Assembly (NCBI GenBank): GCA_963783575.1
Contig: CAWAOD010000016.1
Location: 192,001-256,000, forward strand
Reading direction: 5' to 3'
Length of the DNA: 64,000 bases
Source of the DNA: an uncultured Spirochaetota bacterium
GTDB taxonomy: Bacteria; Spirochaetota; Brevinematia; Brevinematales; JAOACQ01
Shown: piece by piece, positions 12,182 through 21,474 of the stretch
Layout: each line of letters starts with the position of its first letter
How positions within the stretch are numbered: the stretch's first letter is position 1
Position numbers and translations under genes: made by a program
Notes under the pieces: generated by a model
Told to the model about the DNA's origin: nothing
Database searches by the model: none
Seen by the model: only the letters and a program-made list of their open reading frames with translations

Positions 12182-14973
12182 CTATTCCTTTAAATGCTTC
12201 CTGATAAAATTTTCAATTTCAATCAAATTAATATTTTTAGCCAGTAATTTTAATCTTGAAGCAAATGGGAGCATTTCGGAATTGGCAGACGATTCAATGC
12301 TTTCAATATACTTTCTTATATTTACAATATCCCCGATTTTTGCCATTGAATATAAAGCTTTAAGTTCATCCGCCGGCGGAATCGGGATTTCCCAGTCCTC
12401 TAAACCGTTTCCGTATTTTCCGAAAGTAACAGCACTGACATTGGTAAAATCTTTATTCAATAAAATGAAGCTTGTATCAAACCAGAATCTGCTGCCTTTG
12501 CCGATTTCGCTTTTTACATAAAGATCACTTCCCAACAATTTTGCAAGGTTCCTGCTTATTGTGAGACCAAGGCCTGTCCCCTTTGTTTTCGGCTGGCCGG
12601 TATCAAGCTGCTGGAATGAATCAAAAATTATTTCCAGCTTTTCTTGTGGAATACCAATGCCTGTATCTTCAACTTCAAAATGCAGTTTATCTGTTTCAAT
12701 CATGCCAGCCCTTAACAATACCTTCCCTTTTTCTGTAAATTTAACGGCATTGCTTAAAAGATTTAGGAGTATCTGGTTAAGCCTTTTACTGTCGCCCAGG
12801 ATATTTACAGGTAAATCCGAAAAGGATTCAAATATGAATTCGAGACTTTTTTCTTCGGCCTGGACCTTGATTATATCAACAATTTTATTTAATAGTTCAG
12901 GTAGTGAGAATGCATTATTTTCAAGCTTCATCTTACCGGCCTCGATTTTTGACATATCAAGCAGGTCGTTAATCATATTAAGAAGATGCAAACTGCTGTT
13001 ATACATCATAGCTATGCTTTCAGTCTGCTTTTTAGTAAGGCTGTCTGTTGTCCCGAATAACTGTATGTAGCCAAGGATGGCATTCAGAGGTGTACGGAGT
13101 TCATGGCTGATATTTGCTATGAACATGCTTTTTGCCTGGTTCGCTTTTTCTGCGGTCTCTTTGGCCTTGAGTATTTCCATTTCGGCGGTTTTACGTTCGG
13201 TTATATCATGAGCGACCACAAAAGCGCCGACAATTTTATCATCGCTGAATTTGAACCTGCTTTTGAGTATGCCCCAGACTTCATTCCCGTCCTTCCTAAT
13301 CGCCTTATACTCGATGGATTCTTCCGGGAGCTCTTCCTACCCGGGCTTTTCTGATTCTCTCAAGGAATATCTCCCTGCTTTCTTTATCCAGGATTTCTAA
13401 TGGGTTCATTCCAAGGAGTTCGGTTTCCGTATAACCGAGCATTCTGCAAAGCCCGTCATTTACTGTCTTGAAACGGTTATCAATGAAATCAATCTCGTAA
13501 ATTGCGGTAGGAGCATATTCTACAAGGAGCCTATATTTCTCCTCACTTTCCCGGAGCGCCTGTTCGGCTTTTTTGCGGTCGGTGATATCAGTATGGTTCC
13601 AGAGACGTCCGTATTTTTTTTCACCGAGATGAATGGGAATAAATTCGCGCAGAAGAGTTCGTCCATTGCTCATTCGAATGTCTTCGGTCTGAACCGGCTG
13701 CCCCAGCCTGACTATTTCATTGATTCGCTTTATGGCAGCGTCAGGATTAATATATGAAAACCGTATTTTTTCAATCAATTCGTTAGAGGACAAATTCGAA
13801 AGATCGGCCGGAGAATTTTTCAAACCGAAAATATCACAAAAAGCCTGGTTGGTAAATTCTATCCGGTCTTCATTCGTAACCAGCAGTATTCCATTATGCA
13901 TACTTGAAAGAAATCAGATAAATCCGCTGTATTGTGGATTGCAGTTTTTCCTCCGCGTTCTTCCGTTCGGTTATATCTTCGGAAAGAATAAAAATACCCT
14001 CCGGAACAGGCTGAAAACTTAAGAAAAAACTTCCCATCGAACCGTCAGGAAAAGTAAATCTGTTTTCAAAGTTCTTAGCAGCCCTTTTTTCCATGCAATA
14101 TTTCAATGTTTTGAACATTTCAGTGTCTTCAATTCCGGGAAACCTCTCCGTCATTTTATGACCGGTAAGTTCTTCTTTTACGTATTTTCCCTGTTTTGCC
14201 GCCGCTGAATTTACATAAATATATGTGAAATCAAAGCCGATGATCTGGCAGCCTTCAAGCATATTATCCAGGGTTTCCCTGTACCGTTCCTCACCTTTTT
14301 GCAGGGCTGTTTTCATTTCAATGCCCTGTTCGATAAGTTTCTGGTTTTGAAGGATGATAAAACTGAGGGTAATTCCTATGACGGTAAAATCAATAATTAA
14401 AATAATCACAGTCGTCATCATATCGCTGTTAAATATTGACTGCATAGGATTAATAAATGCGGATATTGTCCGGATCAAATAAAATAAGACATTTAAAGCC
14501 AGTATTAGTATGATAATATATAAAGAAGTGGCTCCGGATTTTTTAACATTCTTAATGCAGAGAAAACCCGTAAAAAAATCAATAAAAGCGACGAAAGATG
14601 AAAATAAGGCAACACGGATATAAGTTAAAGGAATGATGTATGTAAAAATGCAGGTTAAAATTATATAAATAATTGTATAGGCAATTAAAAAATATCTGTT
14701 AATCTTTAACTTTAAGAACTGCAAGAGCCCGATTGAAAGAAATATAACGGAAGCAACTAAAAGTGTATTTGACAATATTATTCCCAGAAAAACGGATGTA
14801 TAGCCCTGGGCTGATATGAATGCAAGGCCGGCAGTTTGCAGAACAAGCCAGGCCGAAAGCGAACGGCTTCCTGGCAGCCTGCGGCGCGTACTTGAGGATA
14901 TGATCATTAGCAGGGAACACAGTAAGCATGTTATTATCAACATAAAAACCATTGTCCTGTTATCCATATCCAT
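12182..14973 (-). pseudogene. membrane multi-PAS sensor histidine kinase split by two +1 frameshifts (near 13910 and 13335)
   Basis: TM region + PAS (13894-14973), PAS (13305-13901), [29 protein letters not shown] (12182-13219); frames join on removing one base at each site. Confidence 0.85.
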
Positions 14974-14999: not shown

Positions 15000-15232
15000 T
15001 ATTTTTCCCGGTTAACTTTTCAATTACCGTCAGACGATAGCCGATCTAATATTTTCAATTCCCTTATTTTAATAATAACCCTTTTCTTTACCATTTCACA
15101 TAAAGCTTTCATTTCATCATCCGATTGGAATCGGGATTCCCCCGTCTTCTAAACTGTTTTCGGATTTCATGAAATTTACAGCACCGGTATTGGTAAAATT
15201 TTTATTCAATAAAATGAAGCTTACATCAACCC
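15000..15232 (-). pseudogene. degenerate remnant of a paralogous histidine kinase 3' end
   Basis: 15118-15232 aligns with 12367-12483 (e.g. TTGGTAAAAT.TTTATTCAATAAAATGAAGCTT). Confidence 0.7.
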
Positions 15233-16225: not shown

Positions 16226-16333
16226 TATTTGACCTCAAAGCGTAAATTTTTATCTGCCGCTGAGCCGTGGCAATGTGGCTTTTTTACTTTCTTTTTCCAG
16301 TCCGCGGAAAAAGAAAGTAATCAAAGAAAAAGG

Positions 16334-16600
16334 CGTCCCCTCCGCATGAACGCCATTTCATGTAAAGCGATCTTATTGTACTGCGGTGTTGTTATTCAAT
16401 ATATCCTCAAACATCTCTTTTATTAACCGCCTCCTCATCAGTCCGTCCGTGGACTGATTCGTCGGTTTTTGCCCTCCGTGGCAAAACCCTCAAGATTGCT
16501 TAGTCTATGTTAATTATGAATAACAATGTAGATTGTCTCAAGTTCGCGTTTAACCGCAGTGAAGATTAATCAGAAATGGCATTAATGCTGCGGGGGGGGA
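16334..16600 (-). repeat. structured ~265-bp repeat, copy A
   Basis: reverse complement is homologous to 19501-19765; self-complementary ends; two GGA-loop hairpins. Confidence 0.75.
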
Positions 16601-16756: not shown

Positions 16757-17554
16757 CTATTTATGTAATTTTAGTAATATTTGATTGACTGCTTGTCTTA
16801 TTATTCTATGCAAATTCTTTCCCTTTATTATCAAATCTAAAGTGAATTTAACATTATTTTTATTTTCCCATCCATAAAATGGTAATTGAGCAAAATTTGA
16901 ATTTAACATACAAAGTATATGATAAAGATCATGTAATTTATTGAAATCAATATACTTATCCAAATAATCTTCACACAATATCATTTCTATTACAGATCGT
17001 TTTAATATAATTAGTGGAGACACAGCTCTTACATCATTCTGTTCCAGATCTATTTTAATAATATCTAAATAATGCTCATTAAAATCAAGTTCTTTTAATA
17101 AGCTATTTAACTTTCCTTCAACATTTACTAAATTTACTTGTCTTAATTCTTTAATTTTATTTCCATCAAAAAAATGCAGTCTATTTTTATATTGATTAAT
17201 ATTCAAATCGCGTAAAATTATTTCAATTGCCGATTGTTTATACTCCTCAGATATCATAACATAAAAGTAATTAATATAGACATTTTCTTTTGATATAATA
17301 TCTGGAAATGGCATATTGAAAGCTCTTTTGATATGTTCAATAATATCTCCCATATCACCTTGATTTTTACCATTAATATTTTTGAATTTTACTTGAGCAG
17401 CATGATATTGTTTTATTCCAAAACGATTATAATCTGAAAACAGAATATCCTTACCAAATTCGTCTATTCCATGATTATTCCTAACATCGCTAAAACCCAT
17501 ATTTTGAAGTAACGGTATTATTATCTCATTAGTATATTCTTCTTCATCATTCAT
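16757..17554 (-). CDS. putative Mrr-like PD-(D/E)xK restriction-endonuclease-fold protein
   Basis: N-terminal LLQNMGF..HG.DEFGKDI...AQVK pattern; AT-rich. Confidence 0.6.
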   Translation of the reverse strand: MNDEEEYTNEIIIPLLQNMGFSDVRNNHGIDEFGKDILFSDYNRFGIKQYHAAQVKFKNINGKNQGDMGDIIEHIKRAFNMPFPDIISKENVYINYFYVMISEEYKQSAIEIILRDLNINQYKNRLHFFDGNKIKELRQVNLVNVEGKLNSLLKELDFNEHYLDIIKIDLEQNDVRAVSPLIILKRSVIEMILCEDYLDKYIDFNKLHDLYHILCMLNSNFAQLPFYGWENKNNVKFTLDLIIKGKNLHRIIRQAVNQILLKLHK

Positions 17555-17627
17555 CTATTCCCTCCATTCTTTCCATCTCCCTCACAATCCTTACTGTCTC
17601 CACGCTTACCGTGCAGGCCCAGCGGAT
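17547..17627 (-). repeat. Type ISP R-M C-terminus remnant, copy 1
   Basis: translates IRWACTVSVETVRIVREMERMEGIDE*; stop overlaps start of 16757-17554 (ATGAATGA). Confidence 0.65.
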
Positions 17628-18295
17628 TTATCTTTATTATTCAGAATTCTAAAATACTCTCTAAGACGATAAATTCTTCTGCAAGAATCTCTATTAGCAT
17701 TTATCAAAAATATTATTATAATAAAAATTAAAATTCCAATGGGTAAATATTCCCAGACCATATATAATTCTTTATATAATAAAATTTCAACTGTAAAATA
17801 TACAATTGAAATCATCAAAGCGATGGCTGTATTTCCCGTCGCTTCCATAATAACATCTAACCGCTCCAGCACAAGCCTTTGTGATTCATACCATTCGTTC
17901 ATTGGTATCTTATTTTCTTTTTCCTCAATTTTCTGAAGTTCATAAGTTATTTTTTCAAAACCAAATTGAATCTTATAGTTTTTATCTAATTGATCATTAT
18001 CAAACTCATTTGATTCTATATCCTCAATAATACCTACAATACCTATAATAGGGATACTGCCTAAAATTAATCCTATTCTTTGAATTGCAAATCCTATGAT
18101 CCAGGCAAAACCTATTATAAAAAGCCAGGACATGAAGCTCTGTTTTTCAATAAGGGTTATTAGATAATTTGAATAGTGAAAATGTATGTTATAAAGTGTA
18201 TTAATTAATATAAAACCCGGCAGTATCTTGCTGAGGAAATCCCTTAAAACAAAATGAGTATAAAAATATTTTATTAAGTCGGTAAAATCCTTCAT
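17606..18295 (-). CDS. hypothetical multi-TM membrane protein
   Basis: 229-aa ORF with GGGAGG RBS and ~4 hydrophobic helices; AT-rich. Confidence 0.65.
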   Translation of the reverse strand: MKDFTDLIKYFYTHFVLRDFLSKILPGFILINTLYNIHFHYSNYLITLIEKQSFMSWLFIIGFAWIIGFAIQRIGLILGSIPIIGIVGIIEDIESNEFDNDQLDKNYKIQFGFEKITYELQKIEEKENKIPMNEWYESQRLVLERLDVIMEATGNTAIALMISIVYFTVEILLYKELYMVWEYLPIGILIFIIIIFLINANRDSCRRIYRLREYFRILNNKDKSAGPAR

Positions 18296-18310
18296 AAATA
18301 AAAGCCTCCC

Positions 18311-18445
18311 TTATATTCTTAAAGTTTCCCTTTCCATCTCCCTTATAATCCCCACCGTCTCAACGCTGACAGATCAGATACACCGGATTAAATCAATCGC
18401 CGATTCCTTATAATCCTTAAACCTGCTATACGCCGTCGGGTTCGT
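18311..18445 (-). repeat. Type ISP R-M C-terminus remnant, copy 2
   Basis: translates PTAYSRFKDYKESAIDLIRCI*SVSVETVGIIREMERETLRI*. Confidence 0.7.
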
Positions 18446-18458
18446 AGTTAATTAACAA

Positions 18459-19001
18459 TTATGCATTTCTATAAATAATTAAACCTATTTTATCATTACC
18501 ATCGAATTTTACAGTTAAGTTATTATTATCATTTATTGGTATACGTTCATATGAATTTATATCAAATAGGCTTATACAAAATTCTGATTGTATTTCGCTT
18601 GATGAAAATGGTAAATCAAAACGTTTTATATTTCTTTTACTTTTTTCTCGTGCATAAGTTGGTAATGCAGTATATTCCTCTATTTTATGAGAGATATCAG
18701 TTAGTTGGCAAGAAACATTACCATTTTCAGGATTTAAATTAAATTTTATTTTAGCAACAGCTTCTGTAGAATTTATATCATAATTAAAACTTGGAGACAT
18801 ATGAGTTCCATTATCTTTTAATCTATTTCCACCATTTATAATTTGATTATTATTGAGATGAAACCATAAATGTTCATGTGTATTACCTCCTACACAATTA
18901 ATAAATACATCATTTGTTCCATCTTCTCTACCACCAGTGCTTAAAGTAACACAGTATTTATTAAACCAATAAATTGCATAACCATTTTGATATTCAGGCA
19001 T
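18459..19001 (-). CDS. hypothetical protein
   Basis: 180-aa ORF with AGGAGG RBS; AT-rich; no family recognised. Confidence 0.65.
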   Translation of the reverse strand: MPEYQNGYAIYWFNKYCVTLSTGGREDGTNDVFINCVGGNTHEHLWFHLNNNQIINGGNRLKDNGTHMSPSFNYDINSTEAVAKIKFNLNPENGNVSCQLTDISHKIEEYTALPTYAREKSKRNIKRFDLPFSSSEIQSEFCISLFDINSYERIPINDNNNLTVKFDGNDKIGLIIYRNA

Positions 19002-19140
19002 ATTAGCCTCCTGTTTAATCTCTTTGGGTTAATTCCCCGTTGCTGCGGGGTAGTTTATTTAACCACAGATGGGCACAGATAAACACAGATATTTACTAAT
19101 CTTATCCGTGTGCATCCACGTTCATCTGTGGTTGATTCTT

Positions 19141-19224
19141 TCACGTTTTCATTTCCTCCATCTCCCTCATAATCTTCACCGTCTCGATACTCACAGTACA
19201 GACCCGCCGGATATAATCAATTAC
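19141..19224 (-). repeat. Type ISP R-M C-terminus remnant, copy 3
   Basis: translates VIDYIRRVCTVSIETVKIMREMEEMKT*. Confidence 0.7.
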
Positions 19225-19500: not shown

Positions 19501-19765
19501 TCCCCGCAGCATGAACGCCATTTCCGATTGAACCTTTGTGTAGTCATAATAGAACTCGGCTTAATAATTGTTGTTATTCCTGTTAAACCTGATTTAAACA
19601 AGTTAAAGGGTTCGGACAGGGATGTCCGAAACCGAGGAATCAGTATAAGGATGTACTGATGACGAGGCGGTAATAAAAAGATATCTTTAATAAAAATACT
19701 TGAATAACAACACCTCAGAATAAACAGATTTCTTAACATGAAATGGTGTTAATGCGTAGGGGTCG
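19501..19765 (+). repeat. structured ~265-bp repeat, copy B
   Basis: homologous to reverse complement of 16334-16600 with compensatory changes in hairpins. Confidence 0.75.
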
Positions 19766-19783
19766 TTCCTTTCTCTTCGACAG

Positions 19784-21474
19784 CAGACTGTGTGAAAACT
19801 CAGTAAAATTTTATAGTAAAATCGATTAATTATACAAAAACTCCATTTTTTGATATATTTTTCAAGCTAAAAAAATCTTAGTTTAAAAAATCTATCCGAA
19901 TACGATAAACGATGGTTTATTAGCATCAAACCAGAGTCATAAGTCTCTTTATTCCCAATATATTCAATACTTTTATTAAATTATGAATGAATCCTGCCAA
20001 ACTGGATTCCGTCAGAACGCCATCCTTTCCCTTCATTAAAAAATAACTGTAACCCATATTCCTTTTTATCGATCCAAATGGATGTTCACATATCTCTTTC
20101 CTTTTCTCTATGATCTTTTTCCCGGCTTCAGAACGAATTTTCCTCTTGAAGTTCTCAATTTCTTCTTTTCTAACTGGTACTTTGATACTTCGTCCTTCCA
20201 CGCTTTCAGTACACTTATTTCTTACTTCACATTGGCTGCATAAGCCGCACTTGTACCTGACTATCTCTTTTCCTCCATTGACCTTCTCTACTTTTTTCCC
20301 ATTTCTCACTAATGGGTTTCCCTCCGGACAATAATAAACATTTTGTCCCGGATCATATTTGAATTTATCAACCTGGTATTCTTCAGCAGGTACTCCTTTA
20401 TTATCTTCTTTGCCTCGAATCCTTGCCTTATGTCCGTCATCCGGATTCGGCATATATACGTTATGTCCCTTATCTATACATTCCAGTATCTGCGGTTCGC
20501 TGTAATAACCGGCATCCGATACTTTGACCGTTTCAGTCTCTACCTTAAGCTCGTCCTTTATTTCTTCTACTCGGTCACACATTCCTGCCATCTGTTTGAT
20601 ATCATTGTTTTCATTCGTCACATCAATCGCCACAATCAGTTTATTCGCATCATCTACTGCCATCTGCAGATTATATGCAATGTCGGATTTCCCTTTATCA
20701 TTCATAAACCGGCTTTCCGGGTCATTTGAATAATATTTCTCCATTTCAGGATTTCCCTCAAAAATCTTTTTAATAGCCTCAACTTTATCCTTTTTTGTTT
20801 TCATTTTCTTTAAACGTTCCGCTATCTTTCCGGAAAGAAATTCAAATTCATTCTTTTCTTCCTTATCGTTCTTATCCATCTCATTCAAATATTCTTCGAT
20901 CTTTTGATCTATTCTATGTATGATTTCTTCTATGTTTTTCCTATGATAAACATTGTTATTGTGGTTTTGCGCACTGATCTTGGTTCCATCAATTCCAACA
21001 ACGTCAAATGATAAAAGCCCGGCTTTATGACATATCTTCAAAAATTCTCTGAATATCGACTGTATTCCCTTCTTATTATCTTTCCTGAAGTCGGCAATCG
21101 TCTTGAAATCCGGCGCTAGTCGTCCAGTCAGCCACATCAACTCTGTGTTTCTTCGGCACTCTCTCTCTAATTTCCTGCTTGTCCTGATTTTATTCAAATA
21201 TCCGTAAATATAGATTTTTAAAAGTATTTCGGATTTATATGAACTTCTGCCGGTTGATGCTTCTTTTACTTTAAAACCAACTCCTTTCATATTTAGCTTA
21301 TCAACAAAAATATCTATAAACCTTACCGGATCTTCTTCTCCTAACAGATCTTCCAGTGTTTCATTGAACAGAACTATCTGATCCCTTGATTCTCCCTCAA
21401 TATGCTTCATCTTTTACTCCGATTATTTTTGTTCTAATAATTATAGCATATTTACTGTGTTTTCACACAGTCTG
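19784..21474 (-). mobile_element. IS1182 family insertion sequence
   Basis: 16-bp TIR CAGACTGTGTGAAAAC (19784-19799) / GTTTTCACACAGTCTG (21459-21474) around transposase. Confidence 0.9.
19926..21410 (-). CDS. IS1182 family transposase
   Basis: SRKLEREC..WL....PDFKTIADFRK, IDGTK, DAGY, CPEG..C..C, EHPFGSIK. Confidence 0.92.
   Translation of the reverse strand: MKHIEGESRDQIVLFNETLEDLLGEEDPVRFIDIFVDKLNMKGVGFKVKEASTGRSSYKSEILLKIYIYGYLNKIRTSRKLERECRRNTELMWLTGRLAPDFKTIADFRKDNKKGIQSIFREFLKICHKAGLLSFDVVGIDGTKISAQNHNNNVYHRKNIEEIIHRIDQKIEEYLNEMDKNDKEEKNEFEFLSGKIAERLKKMKTKKDKVEAIKKIFEGNPEMEKYYSNDPESRFMNDKGKSDIAYNLQMAVDDANKLIVAIDVTNENNDIKQMAGMCDRVEEIKDELKVETETVKVSDAGYYSEPQILECIDKGHNVYMPNPDDGHKARIRGKEDNKGVPAEEYQVDKFKYDPGQNVYYCPEGNPLVRNGKKVEKVNGGKEIVRYKCGLCSQCEVRNKCTESVEGRSIKVPVRKEEIENFKRKIRSEAGKKIIEKRKEICEHPFGSIKRNMGYSYFLMKGKDGVLTESSLAGFIHNLIKVLNILGIKRLMTLV

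Follow-up and report, generated by a model that had tools for sequence, protein, structure and literature searches.

Diverged 3′ ends of a DrdV-like restriction-modification gene lie between unrelated genes in an uncultured Spirochaetota bacterium

What are the three diverged repeats that separate unrelated genes on one contig of an uncultured Spirochaetota bacterium, and how did they come to be stacked there? The locus occupies positions 16757 to 19224 of a 64,000-nucleotide (nt) stretch of DNA, hereafter the window (assembly GCA_963783575.1, contig CAWAOD010000016.1, positions 192,001 to 256,000). An original prediction, made from the letters of this stretch, held that each repeat encodes the decayed end of a Type ISP restriction-modification (R-M) enzyme and that this end serves as an anchor for an integron-like array of candidate defense genes. 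Our comparisons identify the repeats as dead 3′ ends, or stumps, of a DrdV-like Type IIL R-M gene, each followed by a different gene (its cargo). We give an even chance to the reading that successive insertions, driven by homology to the conserved end of that gene, produced the array, and that the parent gene has since been lost.

The three minus-strand direct repeats form the top direct-repeat family in the 10- to 30-kb part of the window (65 nt, 68 to 100% identical to the reference copy), with spacings of 761 and 824. Their places and translations were as predicted. Stump 1 (19141..19224) holds the last ∼27 codons and the stop of a DrdV-like gene; it covers positions 179 to 251 of our DNA model (33 bits) and gives a weak PADLOC match to REase_MTase_IIG. 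Stump 2 (18311..18445) holds the last ∼36 codons of a gene of the same family and carries an in-frame TGA at 18376-18374; clear homology begins at ∼18424, and its PADLOC match is to positions 977 to 1011 of the 1024 positions of PDLC03621 (E 7e-4). Stump 3 (17547..17627) holds the last ∼26 codons and the stop, and it contains the sequence GGAGG just ahead of the start of the gene behind it. That each repeat is followed by a different AT-rich gene was also borne out: the 180-, 229-, and 265-amino-acid (aa) open reading frames (ORFs) have GC contents of 26, 28, and 24%, against 42 to 51% for the stumps and 37% for the genome. One detail had to be corrected. The stop codon said to overlap a cargo start in copy 1 belongs to stump 3, which overlaps the 265-aa ORF by 8 nt and has its stop within codons 2 to 3 of that ORF rather than on the start codon. 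Stump 1 ends 139 nt before its cargo, and stump 2 ends 15 nt before its own.

From which gene do these ends come? A profile built from the three stump peptides matched 1044 of 3802 candidate proteins at E ≤ 0.01, and PF18135 (Type_ISP_C) was present in 115 of 120 among the stump-profile matches listed. By hhalign, the stump profile corresponds to the last 36 columns of 33 full-length parents (probability 99.2). The full-length parents, the nearest of which span ∼1000 to 1230 aa, share the coupler, methyltransferase, and Type_ISP_C domains with the Type ISP enzymes LlaBIII and LlaGI (E 1e-85 to 1e-90 for PF18135) and carry no helicase Pfam domain. One parent, P0065, aligned end to end with PDB entry 7LO5 (residues 1 to 1023 versus 1 to 1027 of 1029; 1074 bits), a structure that we take to be DrdV (7LO5/7LVV) from its length of 1029 residues. 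Residues 155 to 1020 of the same parent aligned to residues 717 to 1571 of LlaBIII, which was matched only from residue 717. In the PDB, the stump profile had a single match, to residues 1003 to 1028 of 7LO5 (E 1.4e-6), and no match to LlaBIII or LlaGI at E ≤ 1. DrdV is described as a Type IIL enzyme of 1029 residues, with methyltransferase and recognition domains that have a common origin with those of LlaGI and LlaBIII (bioRxiv 10.1101/2021.01.06.425610).

By these comparisons, the stumps come from the very 3′ end of a DrdV-like Type IIL R-M gene without a helicase, which is a cousin of the LlaBIII/LlaGI-type ISP genes and not one of them. The parent family has the Type IIL arrangement of nuclease, helical connector, adenine methyltransferase, and target recognition domain in a single chain of ∼1030 aa without an ATPase. 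Like the Type ISP enzymes it ends in PF18135; unlike them, its members (∼1000 to 1080 aa) lack the SF2 helicase-ATPase between nuclease and methyltransferase and fall short of the ∼1,570-aa total. The predicted Type ISP terminus thus stands as the terminal segment of PF18135 enzymes and fails as an assignment to LlaBIII/LlaGI. In contrast to an intact DrdV-like gene, with its restriction and one-strand methylation activity, the window holds only the last 20 to 36 codons, three times over, and no enzyme; the prediction that no intact parent lies in the window was right.

Are there further copies, or a parent, elsewhere in this genome? A DNA profile made solely from the 3′ ends of 66 foreign parents recovered exactly these three stumps in the 4.9-Mb genome (E 2e-10, 4e-8, and 1.5e-5), with one further weak match in a distant gene on C11. 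Searches with PF18135, the protein profile, and the DNA profile found no parent gene in the 89.85% complete assembly other than this distant, frameshifted C11 gene. As a separate observation, that second PF18135 R-M gene (L001, G000:C11:378444-382166) is followed by an AT-rich 229-aa ORF. The search for more copies that the original prediction had proposed yielded none beyond the three in this genome, and both parents and stumps in other phyla.

How could such an array arise? In the reading we prefer, incoming DNA would bring the 3′ end of another allele together with the gene coupled behind it. The incoming end would pair with the last ∼250 bp of the resident gene, the most conserved part of the family, and integrate by one of two routes: a small circle could enter through a single crossover, or one joint could be homologous and the other illegitimate (homology-facilitated illegitimate recombination [HFIR]). 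The resident gene would stay whole and gain a new tail and a new first neighbor, while its old tail and neighbor would be pushed downstream. Repeated rounds would stack stumps, each retaining a stop and a ribosome-binding region for the next gene. At this locus the body of the parent would have been deleted later, probably in connection with the insertion sequence (IS) and repeats now upstream; stump 1 is possibly its sole remnant, and the 265-aa gene, last in the array, may be the original neighbor rather than an insert. We infer all of these steps from sequence comparison.

The layout recurs in other genomes. A pattern scan of species genomes gave at least 123 stretches (80 with flanks), and four group searches covered 127 Nostoc genomes and 301 each from a Chitinophagales family, the Anaerolineaceae, and the Bacteroidales, from which 40, 0, 20, and 20 regions were taken, respectively. 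Eleven further loci in Bacteroidota and Chloroflexota carry two to six same-strand copies (L016, L018, L041, L058, L087, L091, L093, L193, L194, L221, and L223), which makes 12 arrays with the window. Most of the 11 are headed by a whole or contig-cut parent; no whole parent is in view in L041, L194, and L221. The clearest example, L018 (L018:5640-13320, JANXQO010000001.1), has a near-complete parent and five stumps that separate an unknown gene, an NmrA gene with a 146-aa gene, a metallo-beta-lactamase-fold gene, and two DUF4440 genes. In L193 (L193:200-11900, Anaerolineaceae), a parent is accompanied by three clear stumps and two weak ones, which lie between a GGDEF gene and paralogous PAS histidine kinases. 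There is no gene between the copies in L016, and the copy in L091 is long and runs past the stop. Of 70 genomes matched at E ≤ 1e-30, 4 had an array (centre genomes left out, many contigs short). None was added by 300 genomes of the Chitinophagales family, by the metagenome and viral pattern scans (3 and 1 loci, respectively), or by the 47 loci examined in the Nostoc group, where decay of the gene is common and no multi-stump cargo array was seen.

Is it specifically the 3′ end of the gene that is repeated, and on which side? We searched 14 windows of 78 aa around 67 parents from a scan of 132 loci, without duplicates, over 255 kb of upstream and 442 kb of downstream sequence. The 12 windows over aa 1 to 936 gave no extra copies near the parents. 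For the last window, 6 loci together had 11 additional copies, every one downstream. In a test at the DNA level, a solo downstream 3′ copy accompanied 4 of 55 parents; among ORFs of this genome the count was 19 of 2457 (P = 0.001).

The copies themselves carry clues to their history. Variable columns in the window fall on codon positions 1, 2, and 3 in the proportion 6/2/11 (P = 0.024); the corresponding figures for L018 are 9/6/28 (P = 2e-5). This third-position divergence suggests that the stumps diverged while they were part of working genes, and they likely derive from different working alleles. Stumps are 79 to 91% identical to their own parent, and in a comparison with 150 full ends the own parent came closest for 8 of 10 stumps, a result that fits donors from close kin. 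The starts of 22 partial copies spread over positions 29 to 197 of the 262-nt model, and their junctions have no motif in common. This speaks against a site-specific recombinase and a fixed att site. In a cross-genus comparison, the L087 stump keeps the tail and the downstream sequence of the undisturbed L016 parent, and the parent in L087 ends in a new tail, with a stop that overlaps the start of its cargo. This tail pattern reads as the signature of displacement.

Several observations weigh against serial insertion. No parent was found in the window, and no locus or empty site in any relative searched. The enrichment of solo 3′ copies is weak when neighboring genes of the same loci serve as the control (4/55 versus 5/209, P = 0.09, with two of the five positive neighboring genes being L193 cargo), and three of the four positive parents came from a pattern scan that favors multi-copy loci. 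In 14 cases the stump starts between −74 and +34 nt from the preceding cargo stop, tighter than expected for a random illegitimate joint, and no cargo was common to two of the arrays compared. A further oddity is that unrelated ORFs are fused in frame to a stump in L087, P0010, and P0056. In addition, HFIR is described as orders of magnitude rarer than homologous recombination (PMC5361080). Finally, two whole genes stand in tandem in L213, one parent end is followed by another parent start in L089, and parents have often been cut down by internal deletion, to lone 3′ stubs in Nostoc or to 5′+3′ fusions in L017, L041, and L184.

These last observations are what would be expected under the strongest alternative, in which whole R-M alleles with their coupled genes piled up in tandem and deletions later took the bodies and spared the ends that carry the stop and ribosome-binding site for the next gene. 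Some Bacteroidales genomes, moreover, have three to seven family matches, the Nostoc stubs are of many lengths beside what we take to be relA, and this history accounts equally well for the third-position divergence and the variable left ends. Yet no extra 5′ or middle fragment was found near the 67 parents, five independent deletions of ∼3 kb would be required in L018, each with its end 1 to 26 nt past the preceding cargo stop, and the 47 Nostoc-group loci gave no multi-stump cargo array despite frequent decay. We regard tandem decay as possible and hold it only tentatively. Could a trans-acting site-specific recombinase, for example an integron integrase, instead use a site in the gene's 3′ end? 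In favor of this are the tight joints between units that consist of ORFs only, and a broken integron-integrase-like gene in this genome (G000:C5:457100-458200), which falls below the family cutoff. We also counted for such a system the likeness of the L018 cargo to what we assume are typical cassette genes, and a motif, resembling what we presume to be the start of attC, that stands just ahead of stump 2 and ahead of the stump in L058. At stump 2 this motif could equally be a deleted D-P-T...Y stretch of the R-M gene, the left ends scatter without a shared motif as described above, no integrase in the genome reaches the TIGR02249 cutoff, and a recombinase was seen neither next to the array in the window nor among the annotated ORFs of L018, L087, and L193; we therefore consider this explanation very unlikely. 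About equally improbable is that one stump was locally duplicated at least twice and drifted neutrally while unrelated genes were inserted between the copies. Stumps are usually nearest their own parent (8/10), 50 nt are identical in L093, and the L193 cargo are paralogous kinases, as local duplication would allow. It does not accommodate third-position differences in stumps that cannot be translated as enzyme, the lack of similarity among the window cargo, or tails that differ from copy to copy after the conserved motif.

What do the relatives of this bacterium tell us? The locus was absent from 30 relatives searched by DNA, in which the matches were essentially to the IS and a dispersed repeat only. 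The DrdV-like subfamily was not found in 42 members of the class or 300 members of the phylum, which have distant PF18135 genes only, and the sole same-genus genome is 57% complete. Because there is no parent here and no relative searched has the locus or an empty site, the history that we propose for this locus is drawn from other taxa. The genome has comEC and dprA; since 10 of 14 control genomes have them too, their presence carries little weight.

Does the array resemble a known system? Precedents for serial insertion are the Rhs C-terminal displacement arrays (Jackson 2009, PMC2935791) and the effector-immunity arrays of the Vibrio cholerae type VI secretion system (PMC5361080). In these papers, an intact gene is followed by variable-length fragments of its conserved part, each with different low-GC DNA; donors are close kin, no integrase is involved, and circle or HFIR models are proposed. 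The same layout is found in L018, L193, L087, L058, and L223, and the window lacks the intact head. What is exchanged in those arrays is a toxin tip, joined in frame to the gene that carries it and able to be fused again to the core, together with an immunity gene. Here, unlike there, recombination would be anchored at the extreme end of an R-M gene, the stumps end in their own stop, and the cargo are separate, functionally mixed ORFs. A second comparison is insertion with long target duplication, for which Furuta 2010 (PMC2853133) describes direct repeats of >30 bp and variable length without mobility genes, often spanning a stop codon, with an H. pylori Type IIG gene as one target. Our repeats (49 to 222 nt) and inserts (0.1 to 5.5 kb) fall within the repeat length of >30 bp and insert size of <20 kb used there, again with no mobility gene. 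The first screen in that paper looked for R and M genes in the insert, and here the stumps bracket the genes for the 180-aa orphan and the 229-aa membrane protein. The events described there, in a text where the term "tandem" is absent, are single and have R-M genes as the insert; here the R-M gene is the target and is repeated as many as five times, by copies that are diverged alleles. Clusters of paralogues (PMC2568036) offer a loose analogy only. Among the papers listed by searches of open-access text, supplements not included, no title or abstract opening described this layout at R-M genes, hotspots linked to DrdV, or iterated stacking behind DrdV-family genes in three phyla.

The likeness to integrons that was originally proposed holds for layout only: tandem ORF-only units, related repeats between them, and mixed cargo. 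The array differs from integron cassettes in having a coding-derived repeat, no fixed crossover site, no attC hairpin (no attC covariance model search was made), and no adjacent IntI; none was found among the ORFs of 8 to 30 kb, as the absence of an integrase beside the array had been foreseen. The array is thus neither an integron nor a Type ISP system. As an observation in its own right, isolated sequences resembling what we presume to be the start of attC are scattered on C4, C5, C12, and C13, and no array of them was seen.

Which genes, then, lie behind the stumps? Cargo 1 (18459..19001, minus strand), the 180-aa orphan, matched no Pfam or PADLOC family over cutoff. Its best Atlas score of 0.82 is a lead only, its structure model is poor (predicted local distance difference test [pLDDT] score, 53; best fold Z, 4.6), it has no membrane segment, and it is predicted with low confidence to be all-beta. 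Cargo 2 (17606..18295, minus strand) is a 229-aa protein with four predicted membrane segments and a stop inside stump 3, 22 nt from the start of that stump; its relatives are hypothetical only, and the one partial homologue ends short of its C terminus. Cargo 3 (16757..17554, minus strand; 265 aa) combines an N-terminal PD-(D/E)xK Mrr-like nuclease fold with a four-helix bundle. It has 1030 homologues at E ≤ 0.001, and residues E4, D36, Q54, and K56, which form the E...D...QxK active-site pattern on a restriction-endonuclease fold, are ≥90% conserved in 34 sequences. Mrr_cat matched 8 of 21 homologues weakly, 3 of them over cutoff, and did not match cargo 3 itself. In its model (pLDDT 95), residues 1 to 144 superimpose on AF1548 1y88 (Z 11.4, root-mean-square deviation 2.4, 111 aligned), FokI (Z 10.8), and MspJI (Z 9.0), and Foldseek returned no match at E ≤ 0.001. 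Conserved residues, homologue matches, and fold thus agree with the earlier call of an Mrr-like nuclease. There was no PADLOC match at E ≤ 0.001, and 1 of 34 homologues has one. We consider cargo 3 a fair candidate for a defense nuclease on the basis of its modeled fold, and the sole defense-like gene of the three, which share no similarity with one another.

The claim that the stacked genes are defense genes did not hold up more widely. The NmrA, metallo-beta-lactamase-fold, and DUF4440 genes of L018 are not matched by PADLOC, nor are any of its six cargo, and L193 holds signaling genes. Behind parents and stumps elsewhere, 10 of 47 scanned genes had a PADLOC match at E ≤ 1e-5, some of them to generic domains. 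Their Pfam families include NmrA, metallo-beta-lactamase fold, DUF4440, toxin-antitoxin, HNH, DUF559, SMODS, GGDEF, and PAS kinases; the defense-type genes in these loci include HNH, PDC-S06, PDC-S18, a cyclase of the CBASS type (cyclic oligonucleotide-based antiphage signaling system), DUF559, and toxin-antitoxin genes, and many others are nondefense. The cargo are mixed, part defense and many not. What survives of the proposed anchor is that stumps recur between unrelated genes in other phyla, downstream of parents; what does not is a specific association with defense. Two lone stumps may be mentioned here: one in L211 (L211:2600-4500) right before a SMODS nucleotidyltransferase, a CBASS-type cyclase, with a 308-aa partner, and one in L210 (Anaerolineaceae) followed by a related PAS sensor gene.

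The immediate surroundings of the array hold several repeats. In reading order, the IS (19784..21474, minus strand) is followed by a dispersed repeat, stump 1, a hairpin spacer, the 180-aa ORF, stump 2, the 229-aa ORF, stump 3, the 265-aa ORF, and a second dispersed repeat. The multi-copy IS has a DUF772 and DDE_Tnp_1_6 transposase and 24-bp terminal inverted repeats, and it sits where the parent gene would be expected; we presume that it belongs to the IS1182 family. The dispersed repeats (19502..19780 and 16321..16596, the latter inverted) are members of a genome-wide ∼290-bp family with 10 copies of ≥200 bp and 27 matches, which is also present in the same-genus genome; TwoAYGGAY scores for it were weak, below threshold. 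A composite transposon was considered and rejected because these inverted flanks are only 71% identical and belong to the dispersed family. The spacer between stump 1 and its cargo (19035..19133) contains two small hairpin repeats, and part of the spacer is also found elsewhere in the genome and in contigs of other organisms. One contig of public run X1 spans 17588 to 17754, across the junction of stump 3 and cargo 2, without a difference; it may come from the same population. No RNA run was among the listed sequencing runs holding the locus, no Rfam element matched at the gathering score, and a promoter scan was uninformative (34 sites versus 22.5 ± 4.6 in shuffles). Elsewhere in the window, a second pair of diverged direct repeats (12315-12483 and 15063-15232; 74 to 83%) matches the 3′ end of a histidine-kinase ORF (12182-13219) and is possibly another duplicated gene end.

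Other family members showed features of their own. In Nostoc (L142 to L181), the enzyme mostly lies behind a conserved 756-aa gene, presumably relA/spoT, and is often frameshifted, internally deleted, or a lone 3′ stub of varied length. Recurrent internal deletions join the first 30 to 66 codons to the last 35 to 100 in L017, L041, and L184 and in P0044, P0052, and P0098. In L197, L209, and L016, an R-M gene or stump lies just upstream of a Mg-chelatase-like ATPase, which we take to be comM/YifB, and in L209 a 1040-aa Ig-domain gene stands at the place of the intact enzyme of L197. Some AT-rich Bacteroidales (L213 to L232; G788, G833, G857, and G987) have four to seven family matches, dispersed or as whole-gene tandems, often at contig ends.

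What would the array mean for this gene family? A broader proposal, which we think improbable, is that the last ∼250 bp of DrdV-family genes would serve as a shared, integrase-free attachment site across phyla. Single-gene circles would excise between stumps, travel between related cells, and reenter behind an R-M gene by RecA, possibly triggered by breaks that the enzyme itself makes, so that the R-M operon would be an integron analogue sampling defense and other adaptive genes. If serial insertion is true, a common defense gene doubles as a gene-capture point, and an unannotated stump of 60 to 250 bp marks the entry site of new genes. Stumps would then be a simple mining handle for candidate defense and adaptive genes, and this array would offer a small, clean substrate for the unsettled mechanism, circle versus HFIR, of Rhs orphan arrays and long target duplications.

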